A DNA stretch of 32,000 nucleotides, taken from an uncultured Alphaproteobacteria bacterium (lineage in GTDB: Bacteria > Pseudomonadota > Alphaproteobacteria > Rs-D84). Positions 3,474 through 15,146 of this stretch are shown piece after piece (within the stretch, counting starts at the first letter, position 1; the number at the start of each line of letters is the position of its first letter). The stretch is taken from positions 300,001 to 332,000 of the forward strand of contig OZ007020.1 of the NCBI GenBank assembly GCA_963931495.1, in the 5' to 3' direction. The position numbers and the translations under genes are program-made. A model generated the notes under the pieces. It ran no database searches and had not been told where the DNA came from. It saw only the letters and a program-made list of their open reading frames with translations.

Positions 3474-5492
3474 ATGAAAGTATATATAAATTATCAAGAT
3501 AAAAGATGGCGTAAATATAAAATTGATTTTATGCAAATTGCGAATATGGCGGCAATTGATGTATCCCCAGATGCAGAAGTGTCAATTACACTGACCAATG
3601 ACGCGGAAATTCAAAAAATTAATAAACAGTATCGTGGTAAAGATGCACCAACAAATGTTTTATCATTTGAATTGGGGGATGATATTTTATTGGGCGATAT
3701 TTTTATTTCTTTGGATACAGTTATGCGTGAAGCAAAAAATGAAAATATATCTGTGGCGGAACATACCGCCCACATGGTTGTTCATGGTATGTTGCATTTA
3801 CAGGGATATGATCATATAAAAAATTCAGATGCACGCAAAATGGAAAATCTGGAAATAAATATACTGAAAAAATTAAATATAAAAAATCCCTATGCGCCGG
3901 AATCGTGTATATGCAGCGATTTATCATGTTGTCCTGGGGGAAAGTTTTTTGCATTTTTGCATCGGTTAAAAATTCGTCCAGATGGATTCTGGCAATATAT
4001 ATTAATGGCGTTAATGGGGGCAATTTGCGCGTTGGGTTTTGCGCCGTTTAATTTATGGTGGGCGACACTGGGGGCAATATTTGTTGCATACAGATTAATG
4101 TTGCGTACACATTCGCGTGGAATATGGGGGGCGTTTGTGCGTGTCTTGCCGTTCAGTGCAATGTATGCAATTGCGATGTTTTGGTGGGTAACGAATTCAA
4201 TATATGTTGTGCCAGATTTGGCCGCGCAATTTGCAATATGGACGGTGCCGGCACTGGTTGGAATTGGTATTGTTGGTGGTTTTATATTTGCAATTCCATT
4301 TGTCGTAATCATGCGTATGCGTACAAATCCGGCATCCAGAGTCTTTGTTTTTGCAGCAATTTGGACATTGGTTTTATGGTTGCGTGAATGGGCGTTTACT
4401 GGATTTCCGTGGAATCCAATTGCGAATATTATGATGCCTTTTCCGATGATTGCGAATTCTATGTCGCTGTGGGGGGCACTGGGGTTGACGTTTGTGTGTG
4501 TTGGAATCATTGCCGCGTTGGCAGAATTATTTGGGCAATGGCGGAATTGGCGTGTCTGGGGTGTCTTTGCTGTTTTTATATTATTAGGTATCGGCGGTGC
4601 CATTTATGGTGCATATAATATGTCACGTTCAAATGTTTCGTGTGATGCGTCGCCGGTTATTCGGATTATTCAACCCGCACGCAGCGCGGTACAAAAGGCG
4701 TCGCATTCACGTGCAGATGCAATTCGCAATGCAGATACAAATATTGCGTATATGACGGGATTGGCGGTAATTAATAATAATGCGGACTTGGTTGTGTTCC
4801 CAGAAACAGCATATCCGTACGCGGTTTTGAATGGTGACGATATGCCAATGGCAACCCAGGTTGGTGCCAATATGATTATTGGCGCAACGCATGTTGATGA
4901 TGGTGGTGTCTATAATTCAATGATTGTTGCCAATCCAAATGGCATGATAAAAAAGATTTACAGTAAATCACACTTGGTGCCGTTTGGCGAATATCGCCCG
5001 TTTGGTGACATTATCCCAACACCAGGGCAATTATCACAGGGTGCCGGCCCAGAAATTATAAGTGTTGATTTAAGTGGCAAGACTTTTTCATTTGCGCCGG
5101 CAATATGTTATGAAATTATTTTTTCTGATTCATTGGTACCGGCGGGCGCCAATCCAGACGCAATTATAAATATTACAAATGATACTTGGTTTGGTGCAAC
5201 ACCGGGTACGTACCAGCACTTGGATATGGTGCGGCGTTATGCAATTGAATCAGGTTTGCCCATTGTGCGCGCAAACTATTCGGGAATCAGCGCATTTGTT
5301 AATCCAGATGGAACAATTTTGTCGTTAATTCCAATCGCGCAACCTGGATATGCTGATGGGGTCGTATGTGGTGCGCACAGTACACCATATCGCGCAATTG
5401 GGCGTGATGGATGGATGATAATTATACTGGCATTTTCATGTGTATGTGTGATGTTTTTGAACCGTCGTTGTGAAAAAAATAAACCAGTATAA
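3474..5492 (+). CDS. lnt: Single-ORF fusion of endoribonuclease YbeY (N-terminal ~140 aa) and apolipoprotein N-acyltransferase Lnt (C-terminal ~520 aa)
   Basis: The N-terminal part has PTNVLSFEL and the YbeY metal motif HGMLHLQGYDH. After the linker PESCICSDLSCCPGGKFF come multiple TM helices (ILMALMGAICALGFAPFNLWW...) and a CN-hydrolase domain with Lnt triad contexts VVFPETAYPY (E), KSHLVPFGEY (K) and APAICYEIIF (C). There is no in-frame stop between the two parts. Confidence 0.85.
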   Translation: MKVYINYQDKRWRKYKIDFMQIANMAAIDVSPDAEVSITLTNDAEIQKINKQYRGKDAPTNVLSFELGDDILLGDIFISLDTVMREAKNENISVAEHTAHMVVHGMLHLQGYDHIKNSDARKMENLEINILKKLNIKNPYAPESCICSDLSCCPGGKFFAFLHRLKIRPDGFWQYILMALMGAICALGFAPFNLWWATLGAIFVAYRLMLRTHSRGIWGAFVRVLPFSAMYAIAMFWWVTNSIYVVPDLAAQFAIWTVPALVGIGIVGGFIFAIPFVVIMRMRTNPASRVFVFAAIWTLVLWLREWAFTGFPWNPIANIMMPFPMIANSMSLWGALGLTFVCVGIIAALAELFGQWRNWRVWGVFAVFILLGIGGAIYGAYNMSRSNVSCDASPVIRIIQPARSAVQKASHSRADAIRNADTNIAYMTGLAVINNNADLVVFPETAYPYAVLNGDDMPMATQVGANMIIGATHVDDGGVYNSMIVANPNGMIKKIYSKSHLVPFGEYRPFGDIIPTPGQLSQGAGPEIISVDLSGKTFSFAPAICYEIIFSDSLVPAGANPDAIINITNDTWFGATPGTYQHLDMVRRYAIESGLPIVRANYSGISAFVNPDGTILSLIPIAQPGYADGVVCGAHSTPYRAIGRDGWMIIILAFSCVCVMFLNRRCEKNKPV

Positions 5493-9657: not shown

Positions 9658-11227
9658 AGGTTTATCGCCGGAATTAATCGCACGTGTGTTGGGCGGCGCG
9701 CCAAAATATACTTTGGCAGAACTGGAAGAAAAATTCCCGCCGCGTAATTTGCCGGATGGTGCGTTTGTAACGCGCTTTGCACCAAGTCCCACGGGATATA
9801 TGCATATTGGTGGCCTGTACCAGGCATTGGTTGATTGTAAATTGGCATACGATACGGGCGGGATTTTTATGCTGCGCATTGAAGATACAGATACCAAGCG
9901 TGAAGTGGCAGATGCCGTGAATGTCATTTGTGATTCAATGCGGCAATTTGGTTTGCAATATAATAATATGCCGGAATATGGTCCGTATTACCAATCCCGG
10001 CGGCGCGATATTTATCACAGTGTGGCGGCCGATTTATTGGCGCGTGGTTTGGCGTATCCGTGCTTTTTAACCGCGGACGAGATGGCGCGCATTCGCGAAA
10101 ATCAAAAGGCTGCGGGATTTGCAACCGGCATTTACGGTGAATTTGCGCGCGACCGCGATATTACTGATGATGAAATAATTCGTCGTTTGGACGCCGGCGA
10201 AGTGCCATCTGTTCGTTTGTATTCAACTGGTAACCCCGAACAACGTATTTTCTGTAAAGATGCAGTTCGTGGTTCAATTGGTTTTCCGGAAAATAACGAA
10301 GATATTGTTTTAATTAAATCAAATGACGGTTTGCCGACATATCATTTTGCGCATCTGTGTGATGATCATTTTATGCGCACAACGCATGTTGTGCGTGGCG
10401 AAGAATGGTTGCCGTCATTTCCGCTGCATATTCAATTGTTTCGTATGATGGGATGGATGCCACCGTTATATATTCATACATCCACAATTGATAAAATTGA
10501 TGCGGATACTGGAAAACAGCGAAAATTATCCAAGCGACACGACCCAGAAGCGAATGTTGCGTTCTTTCTGGCCGATGGTTGGCCGACCGAGGCTGTGTTG
10601 GAATATCTGTTTAATATTGCCGCATCTGGGTATGAAGAGGCAAAGAATAAAGGCCAGGTTAAAAATATTTGGGAATACCAATTGCGGCCAAAGAAAATTC
10701 CTATGTCGGGCGCGTTGTTTGATATGAAAAAACTGGAATGGTGGGCGCGTGAATTTATCGGGACGTTGCCGGTTGATGAATTGGCGCGCCGCGTTCGTGA
10801 TTGGGCAAATGAATATGACCCAGTGTGGGCGGCGCGAATCGGTGGTAACCCCGAATATCTGAAAAACATTTTGGCAATTGAACGCGATAATCCAAAGCGT
10901 ATTCGCAAAGATTTTATTACATGGAAACAGACTTTGGACGAAGTGTCTTATTTTTGGGACGATTTGTTTGCGCCGAATACCGAATATGCGTTTAATCACG
11001 ATTTACTGCGCGCGTTTTTGAAAACATTTGATATTTGCGATGATAAAGACGCGTGGTGGAATAAAATTGTTGCGATTGCGGCGGCCACGGGCGTGAAAAA
11101 TGGTGATGTTGCCATGAATCTGCGTGTGGCGGTAACGGGGCGCACAAATACCCCGGATCTGTATTCAATTATGCAGGTTATGGGCGCAGATCGGGTTGTG
11201 TCACGAATTCAGGGGATGTTAAAATGA
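9650..11227 (+). CDS. gltX: Glutamate--tRNA ligase (class I)
   Basis: RFAPSPTGYMHIGG (HIGH motif), LRIEDTD and KLSKRH (KMSKS motif). 8-nt overlap with the upstream GNAT gene. Confidence 0.92.
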   Translation: MRKGLSPELIARVLGGAPKYTLAELEEKFPPRNLPDGAFVTRFAPSPTGYMHIGGLYQALVDCKLAYDTGGIFMLRIEDTDTKREVADAVNVICDSMRQFGLQYNNMPEYGPYYQSRRRDIYHSVAADLLARGLAYPCFLTADEMARIRENQKAAGFATGIYGEFARDRDITDDEIIRRLDAGEVPSVRLYSTGNPEQRIFCKDAVRGSIGFPENNEDIVLIKSNDGLPTYHFAHLCDDHFMRTTHVVRGEEWLPSFPLHIQLFRMMGWMPPLYIHTSTIDKIDADTGKQRKLSKRHDPEANVAFFLADGWPTEAVLEYLFNIAASGYEEAKNKGQVKNIWEYQLRPKKIPMSGALFDMKKLEWWAREFIGTLPVDELARRVRDWANEYDPVWAARIGGNPEYLKNILAIERDNPKRIRKDFITWKQTLDEVSYFWDDLFAPNTEYAFNHDLLRAFLKTFDICDDKDAWWNKIVAIAAATGVKNGDVAMNLRVAVTGRTNTPDLYSIMQVMGADRVVSRIQGMLK

Positions 11228-11970
11228 CAAAATCAAGACAGGTTACGCGTAAGCAGTTAAAAGAAGTTAAATCCGATTCGCGTGCGAATCGTTTGTTGCG
11301 TATTTTGCGTGCAACGGGGCTGTTTCGCTGGGAACGCCCCAGCACCCATGCCGAAGAAGTGTTAAATATATTAACACATGGTATTGGGGTTGGGTTGGCA
11401 ATTGCGGGATTGACGTTGTTGGTTGTGTTTGCGGCGTTGGCGCATAATCCGTGGGCGGTTGTATCCTGCGCGATTTTTGGCGCGACGATGATAACGCTGT
11501 ATTTCGGTTCCACAATGTGCCATGCGACAATCGGACGACGTGGCGAAAGTTTTTTTGAAGTATGGGACAGTGTTGCCATTTATGCATTGATTGCCGGTAC
11601 ATATACGCCGTTTTTGTTGGTAAATTTGCGTGGCGGATTGGGATGGACTGTGTTCGGTATTTTGTGGGCCATTGTGATTTTTGGCGCAATTATGAAAATT
11701 CGCAGTCCAAAGCAGCAACCAAAATGGATGGTGGCGCTGTATCTGGTTATGGGGTGGACGTTGCTGTTCATATTGCCGGCAATGTTGCATAATATCCCGC
11801 CGCGCGGGTTGTGGTTTATTCTGGCGGGTGGACTGTCTTATTCGCTGGGGGTCATATTTTACCTGTGGCGAAAAATGAAGTTTTCGCATGCGGTGTGGCA
11901 TTTGTTTGTAATCGGGGGCAGTGTGTGTTTCTTTTTCGCCGTGTTGTTTGGATGTATAATTGACTTTTAA
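11224..11970 (+). CDS. Hemolysin III / PAQR-family membrane protein
   Basis: Seven hydrophobic segments. It has the N-terminal EEVLNILTHGIGVGLAIAG and a C-terminal HAVWHLFVIGGSVCFF typical of Hly-III/YqfA. ATGA overlap with gltX. The true start could be further downstream. Confidence 0.85.
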   Translation: MTKSRQVTRKQLKEVKSDSRANRLLRILRATGLFRWERPSTHAEEVLNILTHGIGVGLAIAGLTLLVVFAALAHNPWAVVSCAIFGATMITLYFGSTMCHATIGRRGESFFEVWDSVAIYALIAGTYTPFLLVNLRGGLGWTVFGILWAIVIFGAIMKIRSPKQQPKWMVALYLVMGWTLLFILPAMLHNIPPRGLWFILAGGLSYSLGVIFYLWRKMKFSHAVWHLFVIGGSVCFFFAVLFGCIIDF

Positions 11971-12129
11971 CGGGACAGTATCCAGATTTTATGTTGAATA
12001 AATTATGTGATTTTGTATAAAATACATGGGAATTTTATCCTGATAAGGAAACAAGTATGAAATTACAAAAGTTTTTTGTAAATCTGTTATGTGCATTTGT
12101 TCCGGTAAAAAAATCGTGGATTAAGTTTG

Positions 12130-12158
12130 TTGACATTTTGTGGTATTAGTATTATTAT
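12130..12158 (+). promoter_or_regulatory. Candidate sigma70-type promoter in the thrS upstream region
   Basis: -35 TTGACA (12130-12135), a 17-nt spacer, then -10 TATTAT (12153-12158). The predicted start near 12165 is only about 4 nt before the ATG of the Thr-rich mini-ORF. Confidence 0.45.
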
Positions 12159-12168
12159 TCAATCTGTT

Positions 12169-12228
12169 ATGAAAAAAATTGGTTTCTTGTTCGTTACAAT
12201 AACAACCACAACCCCCACGGGGGTATAA
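12169..12228 (+). CDS. Candidate Thr-rich leader peptide (19 aa) upstream of thrS
   Basis: ATG AAA AAA ATT GGT TTC TTG TTC GTT ACA ATA ACA ACC ACA ACC CCC ACG GGG GTA TAA = MKKIGFLFVTITTTTPTGV*. Six of the 19 codons are Thr. No SD, consistent with a near-leaderless transcript from the promoter above. A GC hairpin (ACCCC-CACG-GGGGT, 12211-12224) covers the last Thr codons. Confidence 0.4.
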   Translation: MKKIGFLFVTITTTTPTGV

Positions 12229-12310
12229 GATTTCTATTTGCGCATTGGCGCGTTCAGTGTAATAATCAATAACAATTCGTTTAATTTTTTTATAACAAGG
12301 GGATTTTATT

Positions 12311-14044
12311 ATGTCTTATCCGATTGAAACGATTCGTCATTCGTTGGCACACGTTATGGCGGCGGCGGTACAAAAGTTGTACCCAGATGTTAAATTTGCC
12401 GGGGGGCCGGCGATTGAAAACGGCTTTTATTATGATTTTGATACAGAACATCGTTTTTCCGAAGAAGACTTTGAAAAGATAGAACGCGAAATGCGTGAAC
12501 TGATTAAATCAAATGGCCGATTTGAACAACGTAATGTCAGTCTGGATGAAGCCAAGCAGATTTTTGCCGCACAACCGTACAAGATGGAATGGTTGAATGA
12601 ATACGATGCCGCTGGCGAAGCGTTGTCTGTGTATACTTTCCGCGATTTTGTGGATTTATGTCGTGGGCCACACGTTGAAAGTTCCAAGGATTTACCACGC
12701 GATTCGTTCAAAATTCGTACTGTTGCGGGTGCATACTGGAAAGGTGACGCAAAAAATAAAATGTTGCAACGTATATATGTTGATGCGTTCGCAACCAAAG
12801 AAGAATTAGATGAATTCTTGAAAATGCAAGAAGAAGCCGCCGCGCGCGATAACCGTAAACTGGGCAAGGATATGGATTTATTCCATTTTGAACCAGATTA
12901 TGCCCCGGGTGCGGTATTCTGGCACGACAAAGGGTACAAAATTTATCGCCGTCTGATTGATTATATCCGTCATCGCCAAGAAATGGCCGGTTATCAAGAA
13001 ATTTCAACCCCGTCTGTTATGGACAGATCACTGTGGGAACGCAGTGGACATTGGGCAAAATATGGTGAACATAATTATTCCGGAAAAACCCAGGATGGAA
13101 AAACTTTTTGTGTAAAGCCGATGTCTTGTCCGGGCGGAATGCTGGTCTTTGGCCAGGGTATCAAATCGTACAAAGATTTGCCGTTGTATTTGGCGGAATT
13201 CGGTAAAGTTTGCCGGTACGAGGCCGCTGGTGGGCTGTCGGGATTAATGCGTGTGCGCGAATTTACCCAAGACGATGCGCATATTTTCTGTACCGAAGAA
13301 CAATTGGAAGAAGAAGTTGTAAAAATATTACGCTTTATCAAAGATATTTATGGCAAGTTTGGTTTTACAAATATTTCCATGAAATTGGCAACGCGCAAGG
13401 AATCAGAGTTCCGTATCGGGTCTGATGAAATTTGGGACAAGGCCGAAGGCGCGTTAAAGCATGCGTTGGATGCAAATGGTATTGAATATGAAATTGCGCC
13501 AGGGGATGCTGCGTTTTATGGACCAAAAATTGATAATTATTTGAAAGATGCGCTGGGGCGCACGTGGCAGTGTGGTACCGTGCAATTGGATATGAATTTG
13601 CCAGAACGATTTGATTTATCATATATTGGTGAAGATGGTGAAAAACATCGTCCGATTATGTTGCACCGCGCAATGTTGGGTTCAATTGAACGTTTTATGG
13701 GAATATTACTGGAATCTACGGGTGGTAATTTGCCACTGTGGTTATCCCCAGAACCAGTTGTGGTAACACCAATTTCAGAAAAGTATCGTGACTATGCAAC
13801 GGATGTTGTGAACCGTTTGCGGAATGCCGGTGTGTATGCGCGTGCAGATTTACGTGATGAAAAAGTAAACTATAAAATCCGTGAACTGTCACTGGCCAAG
13901 ACGCCGATTATCGCAATCGTTGGCGAAAAAGAAATGGAAAATAATACCGTGACTTTGCGTCATCTGGGTGTGGAAAAACAAGAAACGATGCCTGTGGACG
14001 AATTTGTCGCCAGTATGGCCGATGCCGTGAAATTGCCGGCGTAA
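12311..14044 (+). CDS. thrS: Threonine--tRNA ligase, lacking the N-terminal TGS domain
   Basis: It starts at MSYPIETIRHSLAHVMAAAV (the HxxxH editing motif). It also has CRGPHV, MSCPGG, FTQDDAHIF, GTVQLD and MLHRA (class II and zinc-site contexts) plus a C-terminal anticodon-binding domain. SD AAGGGGA upstream. 577 aa. Confidence 0.93.
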   Translation: MSYPIETIRHSLAHVMAAAVQKLYPDVKFAGGPAIENGFYYDFDTEHRFSEEDFEKIEREMRELIKSNGRFEQRNVSLDEAKQIFAAQPYKMEWLNEYDAAGEALSVYTFRDFVDLCRGPHVESSKDLPRDSFKIRTVAGAYWKGDAKNKMLQRIYVDAFATKEELDEFLKMQEEAAARDNRKLGKDMDLFHFEPDYAPGAVFWHDKGYKIYRRLIDYIRHRQEMAGYQEISTPSVMDRSLWERSGHWAKYGEHNYSGKTQDGKTFCVKPMSCPGGMLVFGQGIKSYKDLPLYLAEFGKVCRYEAAGGLSGLMRVREFTQDDAHIFCTEEQLEEEVVKILRFIKDIYGKFGFTNISMKLATRKESEFRIGSDEIWDKAEGALKHALDANGIEYEIAPGDAAFYGPKIDNYLKDALGRTWQCGTVQLDMNLPERFDLSYIGEDGEKHRPIMLHRAMLGSIERFMGILLESTGGNLPLWLSPEPVVVTPISEKYRDYATDVVNRLRNAGVYARADLRDEKVNYKIRELSLAKTPIIAIVGEKEMENNTVTLRHLGVEKQETMPVDEFVASMADAVKLPA

Positions 14045-14051
14045 TAAATAT

Positions 14052-14075
14052 ATGGCGCGCTTGTAAACGCGCCAT
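14052..14075 (+). terminator. Hairpin downstream of thrS (possible terminator)
   Basis: ATGGCGCG (14052-14059) / loop CTTGTAAA / CGCGCCAT (14068-14075) forms a perfect 8-bp stem. The tail TATAATTGTAT is only moderately T-rich. Confidence 0.45.
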
Positions 14076-14100
14076 TATAATTGTATGCAAAGGGGGTCAT

Positions 14101-14244
14101 ATGAAAAAAGCAATATTATTGTTGGTGTTGTTTGTTGTGCCAATGGCATTGTCGGCGTGCGCAACAAGTTGTGAAACAGAACCAATTGTTGAAGAAAATC
14201 ATAAACTGATTGTGCCGCCGAATTTTGGACAAATGCCAAAATAA
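14101..14244 (+). CDS. Small lipoprotein (47 aa), possibly DUF3035/BamF-like
   Basis: My own ORF call; it is below the track's size cutoff. AGGGGG is followed by the ATG at 14101. MKKAILLLVLFVVPMALSAC has a lipobox (LSAC). The mature part ends HKLIVPPNFGQMPK, reminiscent of the PL.vPP.f.LP tail of DUF3035 lipoproteins. Confidence 0.5.
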   Translation: MKKAILLLVLFVVPMALSACATSCETEPIVEENHKLIVPPNFGQMPK

Positions 14245-14259
14245 CGTGCGAGATATTCT

Positions 14260-14287
14260 TTGTTATTTGCGCTTTTTGTGGTATAAT
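14260..14287 (+). promoter_or_regulatory. Candidate promoter with extended -10 for the SPOR gene
   Basis: -35 TTGTTA (14260-14265), a 16-nt spacer, then TGgTATAAT (14279-14287). AAGGGGA SD and the ATG at 14316 lie downstream. Confidence 0.5.
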
Positions 14288-14315
14288 GTACCGTAAAGCA
14301 TAAGGGGAATCCGCC

Positions 14316-15146
14316 ATGAATAATGATGATAACAATCTGGACCTGTTGGATTTGAATGATGATGCAGATACGTTGGATGACAATCTGCCGGATGCGGCGC
14401 CGTTTACCAATCCGCGCCCGAAAAAGCCGTGGCTGTTGTTAGCGGTTGGGGTGTTGGTAATTATTTTGGCGACGTATATTATTATTCGCACAATTGGTGG
14501 CGATTCTTCATCTTCTATGGAGGTGGATTTAGACGCACCCGCAATCGTCGTAGAAGGACAAGATGGTCCAATCGCGGATGCGGCGCTTGATGTGCCAAGC
14601 GTTCCGGCGGCTGTTGCGCCGGCGCCACAACCCGCGCCGGCACCAAAAAATGATGCACGTGTGCAACCGGCGCCTGTACCAGTACCAGCACCGCAACCCG
14701 CGGTAAAGCCGGTACCACAGCCTGCGCCACAACCGGTGGCCCAAAATGCAACCCCGGGTGTGCCAGTGCGTGTCATAGAAGACAGAAAAGATGTTACATT
14801 TAATCCGGAACGCGTTCAATCGGCGCCGGCACCGGCACCAAAACCGGCCGCCACACAACCGGCACGTCGTGCAGCGCAACCCGCCGCAACGGCGCCGCGT
14901 AATGGTGGTTGGTATGTTCAGTTTGGATCGTACAGCACGCGCGCATCGGCCGAAGCCGGCCAGCGTCAATTACAAAATGGACATCGCAGTTTGTTTGCAG
15001 GACGCCAGTTTGTAATCTTGGCCGCTGTTTTGCCAAATGGATCAACAACGTATCGTTTGCGGGTGGCGTTTGATACATCGGCAAATGCAAATGCGTTTTG
15101 TCGCAATGCCAAGTCGGATGGTGTTGATTGTTATGTAACAAAGTAA
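14316..15146 (+). CDS. SPOR domain-containing protein (septal peptidoglycan binding) with a TM anchor and Pro/Ala-rich linker
   Basis: TM segment WLLLAVGVLVIILATYIIIRTI. Linker PAPQPAPAPK...PAPVPVPAPQPAVKPVPQPAPQP. C-terminal GGWYVQFGSYSTRASAEAGQRQL...YRLRVAFDTSANANAFCRNAKSDGVDCYVT is a typical SPOR domain. Confidence 0.85.
   Translation: MNNDDNNLDLLDLNDDADTLDDNLPDAAPFTNPRPKKPWLLLAVGVLVIILATYIIIRTIGGDSSSSMEVDLDAPAIVVEGQDGPIADAALDVPSVPAAVAPAPQPAPAPKNDARVQPAPVPVPAPQPAVKPVPQPAPQPVAQNATPGVPVRVIEDRKDVTFNPERVQSAPAPAPKPAATQPARRAAQPAATAPRNGGWYVQFGSYSTRASAEAGQRQLQNGHRSLFAGRQFVILAAVLPNGSTTYRLRVAFDTSANANAFCRNAKSDGVDCYVTK

Follow-up and report, generated by a model that had tools for sequence, protein, structure and literature searches.

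A threonine-rich mini-ORF precedes thrS

We analysed a 32,000-nucleotide (nt) stretch of DNA from an uncultured alphaproteobacterium of the lineage Rs-D84 (GenBank assembly GCA_963931495.1, contig OZ007020.1, positions 300,001 to 332,000 of the forward strand). This whole stretch is referred to as the window, and coordinates are counted from its first base. The subject is the leader region of thrS, the gene for threonyl-tRNA synthetase (ThrRS). An original prediction, made from the letters of the window without database searches, had proposed that a peptide encoded in this leader senses the charging of Thr-tRNA. On the forward strand, thrS (12311..14044) encodes a 577-residue protein with the Pfam domains tRNA_SAD, tRNA-synt_2b and HGTP_anticodon, and lacks the N-terminal TGS domain. 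Upstream of it lie a promoter (P1), a mini open reading frame (mini-ORF) rich in Thr codons, a hairpin (HP1) embedded in the end of that ORF, a U-rich tract, and a second hairpin (HP2) placed inside a predicted second promoter (P2).

P1 consists of a -35 hexamer TTGACA (12130..12135, forward strand, as are all features of the leader) and a -10 hexamer TATTAT (12153..12158). This TTGACA-N17-TATTAT element could be read in the sequence just as the original prediction had described it, with an 11/12 match, and it scored highest among the promoter-like sites within 11000-15000. Transcription is predicted to start at ~12165-12166. The mini-ORF, likewise confirmed by direct reading, opens at an ATG at 12169 that has no Shine-Dalgarno (SD) sequence, and encodes MKKIGFLFVTITTTTPTGV in 19 codons followed by a TAA stop at 12226-12228 (12169..12228). 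Its six Thr codons are, in order, ACA, ACA, ACC, ACA, ACC and ACG.

To place the leader in an evolutionary context, related loci were collected by a ThrRS protein scan, taking one genome per species. The scan returned 80 loci, with ThrRS identities of 76-94% in 49 and of ~61% in 31. The 49 closer loci are named uncultured Alphaproteobacteria or Candidatus Enterousia and are of gut and rumen origin. Enterousia is a member of the uncultured order Rs-D84, with genomes of <1 Mb (PMC12306168), and the window likewise belongs to a Candidatus Enterousia-like alphaproteobacterium of the gut. The comparison set comprised the window and the 47 relatives with enough sequence upstream of thrS (n = 48), and the counts given below for thrS leaders refer to this set.

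The leader cassette was kept upstream of thrS in 48/48 loci, that is, in the window and in all 47 species-level relatives. No such leader was found before thrS in the 31 more distant loci, where the gene lies directly behind a glycosyltransferase-like gene and encodes a full-length ThrRS. The TGS domain (MVAIKLPDGS...) is retained in these distant loci (L050-L080). Presence of the leader thus goes with absence of the TGS domain, and absence of the leader with its retention, so that domain loss and leader gain coincide phylogenetically. A search of a plasmid collection gave no match.

P1 is conserved in the relatives as a TTGAC/T-like -35 element, followed after exactly 17 nt by TAnnnT, and the leader ATG lies only 6-10 nt past the -10 hexamer. 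This distance leaves no space for an SD sequence, and the mini-ORF is therefore predicted to be leaderless or nearly so, with a 5′ untranslated region (UTR) of ≤4 nt. The mini-ORF has 18-26 codons with 4-8 Thr codons in every locus and lies 77-105 nt ahead of thrS, both in the relatives and in the window.

All 48 leader peptides follow the pattern M-x(variable)-hydrophobic-FF-T(4-8)-P-x-G-V-stop, and 43 of them are distinct. The N-terminal half varies freely, is rich in Lys, Phe and Ile, and is encoded by DNA that is nearly without C. The Thr codons are concentrated in a six-codon candidate sensing window (12196..12213; T-I-T-T-T-T in the sequence analysed here) directly 5′ of an invariant Pro codon. 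Counting back from this Pro, Thr frequency at codons -1 to -6 is 1.00, 1.00, 0.92, 0.85, 0.77 and 0.81; beyond codon -6 it is 0.29, 0.17, 0.04 and 0. Outside the hairpin, Thr codons drift synonymously (ACA 137, ACT 62, ACG 20, ACC 14). Conservation of the ORF with synonymous drift in the Thr run was what the original prediction had proposed to look for in an alignment of the regions upstream of thrS, and it was found. A variable N-terminus combined with drifting Thr codons is, in sequence comparison, what regulatory codons would be expected to show and a functional peptide would not.

An invariant hairpin overlaps the end of the mini-ORF

HP1 (ACCCC-CACG-GGGGT, 12211..12224) pairs arms at 12211-12215 and 12220-12224. 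In the form ACCCC-N4-GGGGU, it is the sole helix that RNAalifold finds common to the 48 leaders. It is coded by Thr(ACC)-Pro(CCN)-x(NNG)-Gly(GGG)-Val(GUN), in a reading phase relative to the ORF that is fixed in all copies. The 4-nt loop varies (CACG, CGCG, UUUG, GUUG and others) and the four C-G pairs are invariant. The ACC and GGG codons of HP1 are present in 48/48 leaders, despite the fact that ACC makes up only 31% of Thr codons and GGG only 20% of Gly codons in thrS, which shows that HP1 is constrained at the nucleotide level.

The stop codon follows within 1-2 codons of HP1 in 47/48 leaders. Between it and the -35 element of P2 lies the U-rich tract TTTCTATTT (12231..12239), a T-rich block that is conserved in the alignments with the consensus AAUUUCUAUUU after the stop codon. 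HP1 has a 5-bp stem and the tail GUAAUUUCUAUUU. HP1, HP2 (12240-12251), the GGGG of the thrS SD (12299-12302) and the thrS ATG at 12311 all lie where the original prediction had placed them; the run of seven T residues that it gave as 12284-12290 is at 12285-12291, one base later.

A serine counterpart precedes serS

A search for promoter-proximal mini-ORFs with amino-acid runs identified a second cassette, in which the mini-ORF MKNRFVFFSSSSSSPLGE, ending in a stop codon, is found at L016:7368-7560 on the minus strand, in the far flank of that locus. The gene downstream of it is identified by Pfam as that of seryl-tRNA synthetase, serS. A metagenome scan with the SerRS of this locus gave 80 further loci. 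Among the 79 serS loci assessed, the Ser cassette precedes serS in 13 loci plus 1 truncated locus (L016, L018, L081-L083, L092, L094, L096, L105, L106, L109, L137, L146 and L159). In the remaining loci, serS lies behind a thioredoxin-reductase-like gene or a plain promoter.

The Ser cassette repeats the layout of the Thr cassette. It has a P1-type promoter, an ATG 7-10 nt past the -10 hexamer, a variable N-terminus and a Ser window before Pro that uses both UCN and AGY codons. The hairpin UCCCC-N4-GGGGA comes next, then the stop codon and a U-rich tract. Most Ser cassettes continue with a TTGCGA...TCGC hairpin and a -10 box. HP1 is closed by A-U in Thr leaders but by U-A in Ser leaders (25 and 10 distinct sequences respectively, with 3 unpaired). 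Since the Thr-to-Ser switch and the A-U-to-U-A change probably took place in a single evolutionary event, the covariation supporting HP1 probably represents one event, not many, and counts once.

Of the comparative evidence available, the switch of the amino-acid run along with the synthetase gene speaks most strongly for sensing of cognate charging by the run. This evidence is unusually clear, in that retargeting from Thr to Ser changed the first base of the codons (ACN to UCN) and the hairpin was compensated. Together with conservation in 48/48 thrS loci, the Ser twin strongly supports the original prediction of a leader peptide that senses Thr-tRNA charging. We conclude from these comparisons that the leader very probably senses the charging of Thr-tRNA and acts on thrS.

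Cassette searches covered the window and 160 related loci (1.6 Mb), and within this sequence no cassettes with other amino acids or before other genes were found; only Thr and Ser are represented. A recurring Leu-rich mini-ORF was rejected as a further cassette because it lies inside a 578-residue coding ORF. Other class II synthetase paralogues were not found in the related loci. A HIGH/KMSKS regular expression for class I synthetases gave 0 matches and missed even the GluRS-like gene of the window, the pattern being too strict.

A second promoter is predicted downstream of the leader

The comparison further pointed to a promoter between the leader and thrS that the original prediction had not seen. 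P2 comprises a -35-like hexamer TTGCGC (12238..12243), which takes the form TTGCnn in nearly all 48 loci, and a -10 hexamer AATAAT (12261..12266), with a predicted second start at ~12272-12274. The -10 hexamer is conserved as TATAAT in 30 loci, AATAAT in 14 and TAAAAT in 4. The distance from TTGC to the -10 hexamer is 17 nt in 41/48 loci and 16-18 nt in all, a sigma-70-type spacing.

HP2 (GCGC-ATTG-GCGC, 12240..12251) is situated within the -35 and spacer of P2. Its stem covaries (GCGG/CCGC, GCGC/GCGC, GCGA/TCGC, GCGT/ACGC and GCAC/GTGC) around a loop of 3-9 nt, and it is independent of HP1. As the loop grows, the tail after the stem shrinks, so that the distance between -35 and -10 stays fixed, which is a promoter signature. 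Covariation of the stem also implies that HP2 matters as RNA, and hence that P1 transcripts at least sometimes run through it. Counted from the first base of the leader stop codon, the stem begins 10-14 nt downstream, approximately where the front edge of a terminating ribosome would lie.

Conservation of P2 with fixed spacing suggests that HP1 and the U-rich tract form the 3′ boundary of an add-on cassette. In several loci (L008-L013, L017, L020, L028, L034, L037 and L041; locus coordinates ~2790-2830), the gene upstream ends in a canonical terminator, such as AAAATGCCGGTTCGCCGGCATTTTTT, that abuts the -35 hexamer of P1. This packing of an upstream-gene terminator onto the P1 -35 is the same as that of HP1 and the U-rich tract onto the P2 -35.

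Past P2, the thrS 5′ UTR (12267..12310 in the window) was characterized by composition and by accessibility folding. It is A/U-rich and G-poor, with the SD AAGGGGA at 12297-12303. Across loci it measures 33-60 nt and is A-rich and G-poor, the spacer being 57% A, 11% C and 5% G. In one lineage (L027:2930-2990), an additional G+C hairpin, GGCGGG-TTGT-CCCGCC, separates P2 from the thrS SD.

A model for induction of thrS by ribosome stalling

The arrangement of these elements suggests the following course of events. The strong P1 would give rise to RNA starting at or within ~4 nt of the leader AUG. When charged Thr-tRNA is scarce, a ribosome translating the leader would dwell in the Thr window. 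A ribosome protects ~12 nt 3′ of the first base of its A site, and therefore a ribosome waiting at any of Thr codons 2-6 of the window extends over the 5′ arm of HP1, which one further upstream does not reach. The footprint from these A-site positions would cover the 5′ arm, and HP1 could not form. The Thr window coincides with the HP1-overlapping positions, its conservation is highest next to the hairpin, and for this reason we take a stalled ribosome that keeps HP1 open to be the core event.

When folded, HP1 and its U-rich tail would limit the P1 transcription, or the P1 RNA, that reaches thrS. They might do so as a weak terminator, a pause site, or a determinant of processing or decay, or else together with Rho. 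Stalling would then add P1-derived thrS mRNA to a basal level provided by P2, resulting in homeostatic induction of ThrRS when charging falls. A tblastn search for rho and nusG in the 1.6 Mb of related loci, which represent only part of the genomes, gave no match.

Taken as a whole, a Thr sensor that acts by melting HP1 and adds P1 output to basal P2 output is the best explanation we can offer, and we judge the case for it to be evenly balanced. That folded HP1 limits the contribution of P1, and that stalling raises thrS expression, is put forward tentatively, with somewhat more doubt than confidence.

Several observations weigh against this model. Neither antiterminator and anti-antiterminator structures nor alternative helices were found, whether by RNAalifold on the 48 leaders, by inspection or by masked folding. 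The original prediction had seen no textbook terminator, and HP1 and its tail give a d'Aubenton-Carafa-type score of <0 in 48/48 leaders. The hairpins 3′ of thrS also score <0 in 44/47 cases, so that terminator criteria trained on E. coli may not apply to this clade. Timing raises a further difficulty. The leader stop codon lies 3-10 nt before the U-rich tract, and a ribosome stays at least ~30 nt behind RNA polymerase; a closely coupled ribosome would therefore block HP1 even with plentiful Thr-tRNA. With HP1 blocked in this way, termination that is strictly co-transcriptional would regulate thrS only slightly, or in the reverse direction. Finally, the model does not account for the invariance of the four C-G pairs of HP1 beside a freely covarying HP2.

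A broader formulation would regard the Thr/thrS and Ser/serS leaders as a modular family of leaderless synthetase leader cassettes in Rs-D84. Their single, sequence-invariant NCC-CCN-NNG-GGG hairpin, encoded by the last sense codons, would be an expression platform of a new kind. It would be melted directly by the stalled ribosome and would act at the adjacent P2 -35, for example through pausing, occlusion or 3′-end formation, with neither a terminator switch nor sequestration of the ribosome-binding site (RBS). We regard this formulation as possible, if rather unlikely.

Alternative explanations of the output step

The same sensor could have an output that is exerted once the polymerase has moved on. 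A stalled ribosome might shield 5′-proximal RNA from 5′-end-dependent decay, as in erm-type systems, keep RNase E off the AU-rich linker that joins HP1 to HP2, or prevent Rho loading on the C-rich, G-poor leader, as in tna-type systems; HP1 would then not be a terminator. Such an output would sidestep the co-transcriptional timing problem, and the geometry of steady-state masking suits the Thr window. The linker is AU-rich and single-stranded between two stable hairpins, and the Thr-run region is C-rich and G-poor (36% C, 5% G; compare the low C and G of the P2-thrS spacer). However, HP1, the most constrained element of the leader, would be left without a clear role, and the C residues of the Thr run are mostly preceded by A, which makes a poor YC-type Rho site. 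We consider this explanation improbable.

A second alternative inverts the sign of regulation. In a pyrBI-like coupling sensor, HP1 and the U-rich tract would be a weak terminator or pause, overcome only while a ribosome tracks the polymerase closely along the leader ORF. Slow decoding of the first Thr codons would uncouple ribosome and polymerase, HP1 would fold, and P1-driven thrS expression would drop when Thr-tRNA is scarce. This is physically the simplest view of a single-hairpin design. The ORF extends across the hairpin to a stop codon close ahead of the U-rich tract, a leaderless start would permit very early ribosome loading, and no antiterminator was found. Against it, only stalls at the first 1-2 Thr codons would free HP1, whereas Thr is most conserved in the codons closest to the hairpin, and no further than six codons upstream of it. 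It is also physiologically implausible that an essential synthetase should be under positive feedback, and to our knowledge the established controls of synthetases (the T-box, pheST attenuation and the E. coli thrS operator) are all of the opposite sign. Regulation of this kind thus appears quite improbable, and induction by stalling is retained as the preferred reading.

In a third alternative, translational attenuation, a segment of the leader would pair with the thrS RBS and a stalled ribosome would free it. The original prediction had raised such a pairing between the C-run of HP1 and the GGGG of the SD, and mycobacterial leaderless poly-Cys small ORFs (sORFs) share the layout (10.1101/834739). 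Folding gave no support for this idea. The mean unpaired probability over thrS positions -15..+3 was 0.48 both unmasked and under a terminating-ribosome mask, and 0.50 both under a stalled-ribosome mask and when the entire leader was covered, and the thrS SD was similarly accessible in P1 and P2 transcripts (0.47 vs 0.54). In addition, the SD differs among loci (AAAGG, AAGGA, AGAGG, AAGGGG) without a matching change in the leader C-run. Sequestration of the SD by the C-run, or by any other leader segment, was rejected on the basis of this mask-insensitive accessibility and the lack of conserved leader-RBS complementarity, and translational attenuation is highly unlikely.

A different pairing, between the 5′ end of the P1 RNA (12166-12177, GUUAUGAAAAAA) and 12285-12296 (UUUUUUAUAAC), could form a ~12-bp helix before the thrS SD in the window, L001 and L006. 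It is clade-specific, with a mean z of -0.4 over the 48 leaders, and was rejected as a general feature. A longer ORF entered by programmed frameshifting or bypassing at the C-run or the G-run was also rejected, the stops in the +1 and +2 frames being at inconsistent positions.

Finally, the invariant arms and variable centre of the hairpin resemble protein operators and P2 alone could express thrS, but it is scarcely credible that the cassette amounts to a small-protein or small-RNA gene in its own right, with HP1 as its end, or ACCCC-N4-GGGGT to a DNA operator for a dimeric factor on P2, with an incidental Thr run. The run changes from Thr to Ser exactly as the downstream gene changes from thrS to serS, the N-terminus is unconserved with nearly all peptides distinct, the cassette stands only before thrS and serS in 1.6 Mb of related sequence, and every copy keeps the hairpin in the same phase with the ORF.

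Relation to known leader systems

The original prediction had implied that a leader peptide controlling a synthetase gene would be without precedent. This is not the case, as E. coli pheST, with its PheM leader, is a synthetase operon under leader-peptide attenuation. Classical attenuators such as those of pheST and ThrL are like the Enterousia-type thrS leader in having a short ORF with a run of cognate codons, through which charging is sensed via ribosome position. In contrast to them, the thrS leader has no SD, none of the alternative 1:2, 2:3 and 3:4 hairpins and apparently no G+C stem directly before the U run. Its stop codon comes after the hairpin, a second promoter is predicted between leader and gene, and Rfam returns no match.

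The resemblance to E. coli ThrL noted in the original prediction does not hold up as homology. The N-terminus is unconserved even among close relatives, and the target here is thrS, not thrABC. Rfam searches of 11900-12400 at gathering and at permissive thresholds gave no leader match, only chance matches far below threshold. This applies to the Rfam family Thr_leader (RF00506) and to the T-box (RF00230).

Two known controls act on the same gene and presumably respond to the same signal, the charging of tRNA-Thr: in E. coli a translational operator that mimics the tRNA, and in Firmicutes the T-box. Unlike the E. coli operator, neither HP1 nor HP2 has a 7-nt anticodon-like NGU loop. HP2 loops are variable and U/A-rich, and both hairpins lie >55 nt from the thrS start codon. 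HP1 and HP2 were both rejected as mimics of the tRNA-Thr anticodon arm, their loops being unfit. In pyrBI and pyrE, the leader ORF ends within the only hairpin, and the translating ribosome serves as the antiterminator. Those systems sense nucleotide pools through polymerase pausing and have canonical terminators, whereas the signal proposed here is tRNA charging.

The predicted leaderless layout is shared with ORFs of Streptomyces and mycobacteria. On the basis of RNA-seq in Streptomyces lividans, leaderless alaL, thrL, trpL2 and leuL2 were suggested before alaS, thrS, trpS and leuS (PMC8079986), which provides a proposed precedent for thrS itself. The thrL peptide, MKRVRPFLETTPGFVPAR, has two Thr residues in T-T-P-G and one hairpin without a U-rich tail (PMC8079986, Table 4). 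It is like the present leader in being a leaderless small ORF before thrS and, apparently, in having one hairpin behind it that lacks a U-rich terminator tail. It differs in having two Thr codons and in resting on RNA-seq of one strain, compared with 4-8 Thr codons, 48 species and a Ser counterpart here. If T-T-P-G were coded ACC-CCG-GGG, it would resemble the ACC-CCN-NNG-GGG module described above. Attenuators of Streptomyces trpS and leuS have also been predicted (PMC1262725).

In the mycobacterial 'Cys ribulon', a ribosome stalled on a leaderless poly-Cys sORF opens a duplex that sequesters the RBS (10.1101/834739). A short ORF predicted to be leaderless and a run of one amino acid are common to both systems, as probably are a ribosome-stalling sensor and the lack of a classical terminator. 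In contrast, no RBS duplex is supported here, and the mycobacterial targets are genes of Cys metabolism, not synthetases. The sensing principle is thus probably shared, but the alternative hairpins and SD-led leader of classical attenuators and the RBS duplex of the mycobacterial type did not appear, nor was a canonical terminator evident, and the thrS leader is best described as a variant of leader-peptide control and not as a new category.

A leaderless ORF with one invariant in-ORF hairpin, no alternative structures and a predicted second promoter falls outside the classical attenuator model. It adds a conserved, amino-acid-specific leader system for thrS and serS to the few textbook controls of synthetases (the T-box, the E. 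coli thrS operator and pheST). The host order consists of uncultured alphaproteobacteria with genomes of <1 Mb, in which few regulators are expected. Standard annotation pipelines would miss both 19-codon ORFs of this kind and the two-promoter layout.

Neighbouring genes

The genes upstream of the leader on the same strand are a GNAT/GluRS-like pair and a gene for a hemolysin-III family protein. In the closest relatives (L001-L006 and L040), the hemolysin-III stop codon directly abuts P1. In the window, ~160 nt (11971-12129) are inserted between this stop codon and P1. An SD-led ORF of 30 codons, MKLQKFFVNLLCAFVPVKKSWIKFVDILWY followed by a stop codon (12058-12150, forward strand), overlaps the -35 hexamer of P1 and may be a gene remnant.

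Downstream of thrS, a hairpin TGGCGCGC...GCGCGCCA (14052-14075, with equivalents in L001-L010) is followed by TTATAAT and not by a T run. Elsewhere in the window, a 672-residue ORF (3474-5492, forward strand) combines a YbeY endoribonuclease with apolipoprotein N-acyltransferase domains (LNT_N and CN_hydrolase), and represents either fused genes or two genes that have no stop codon between them.

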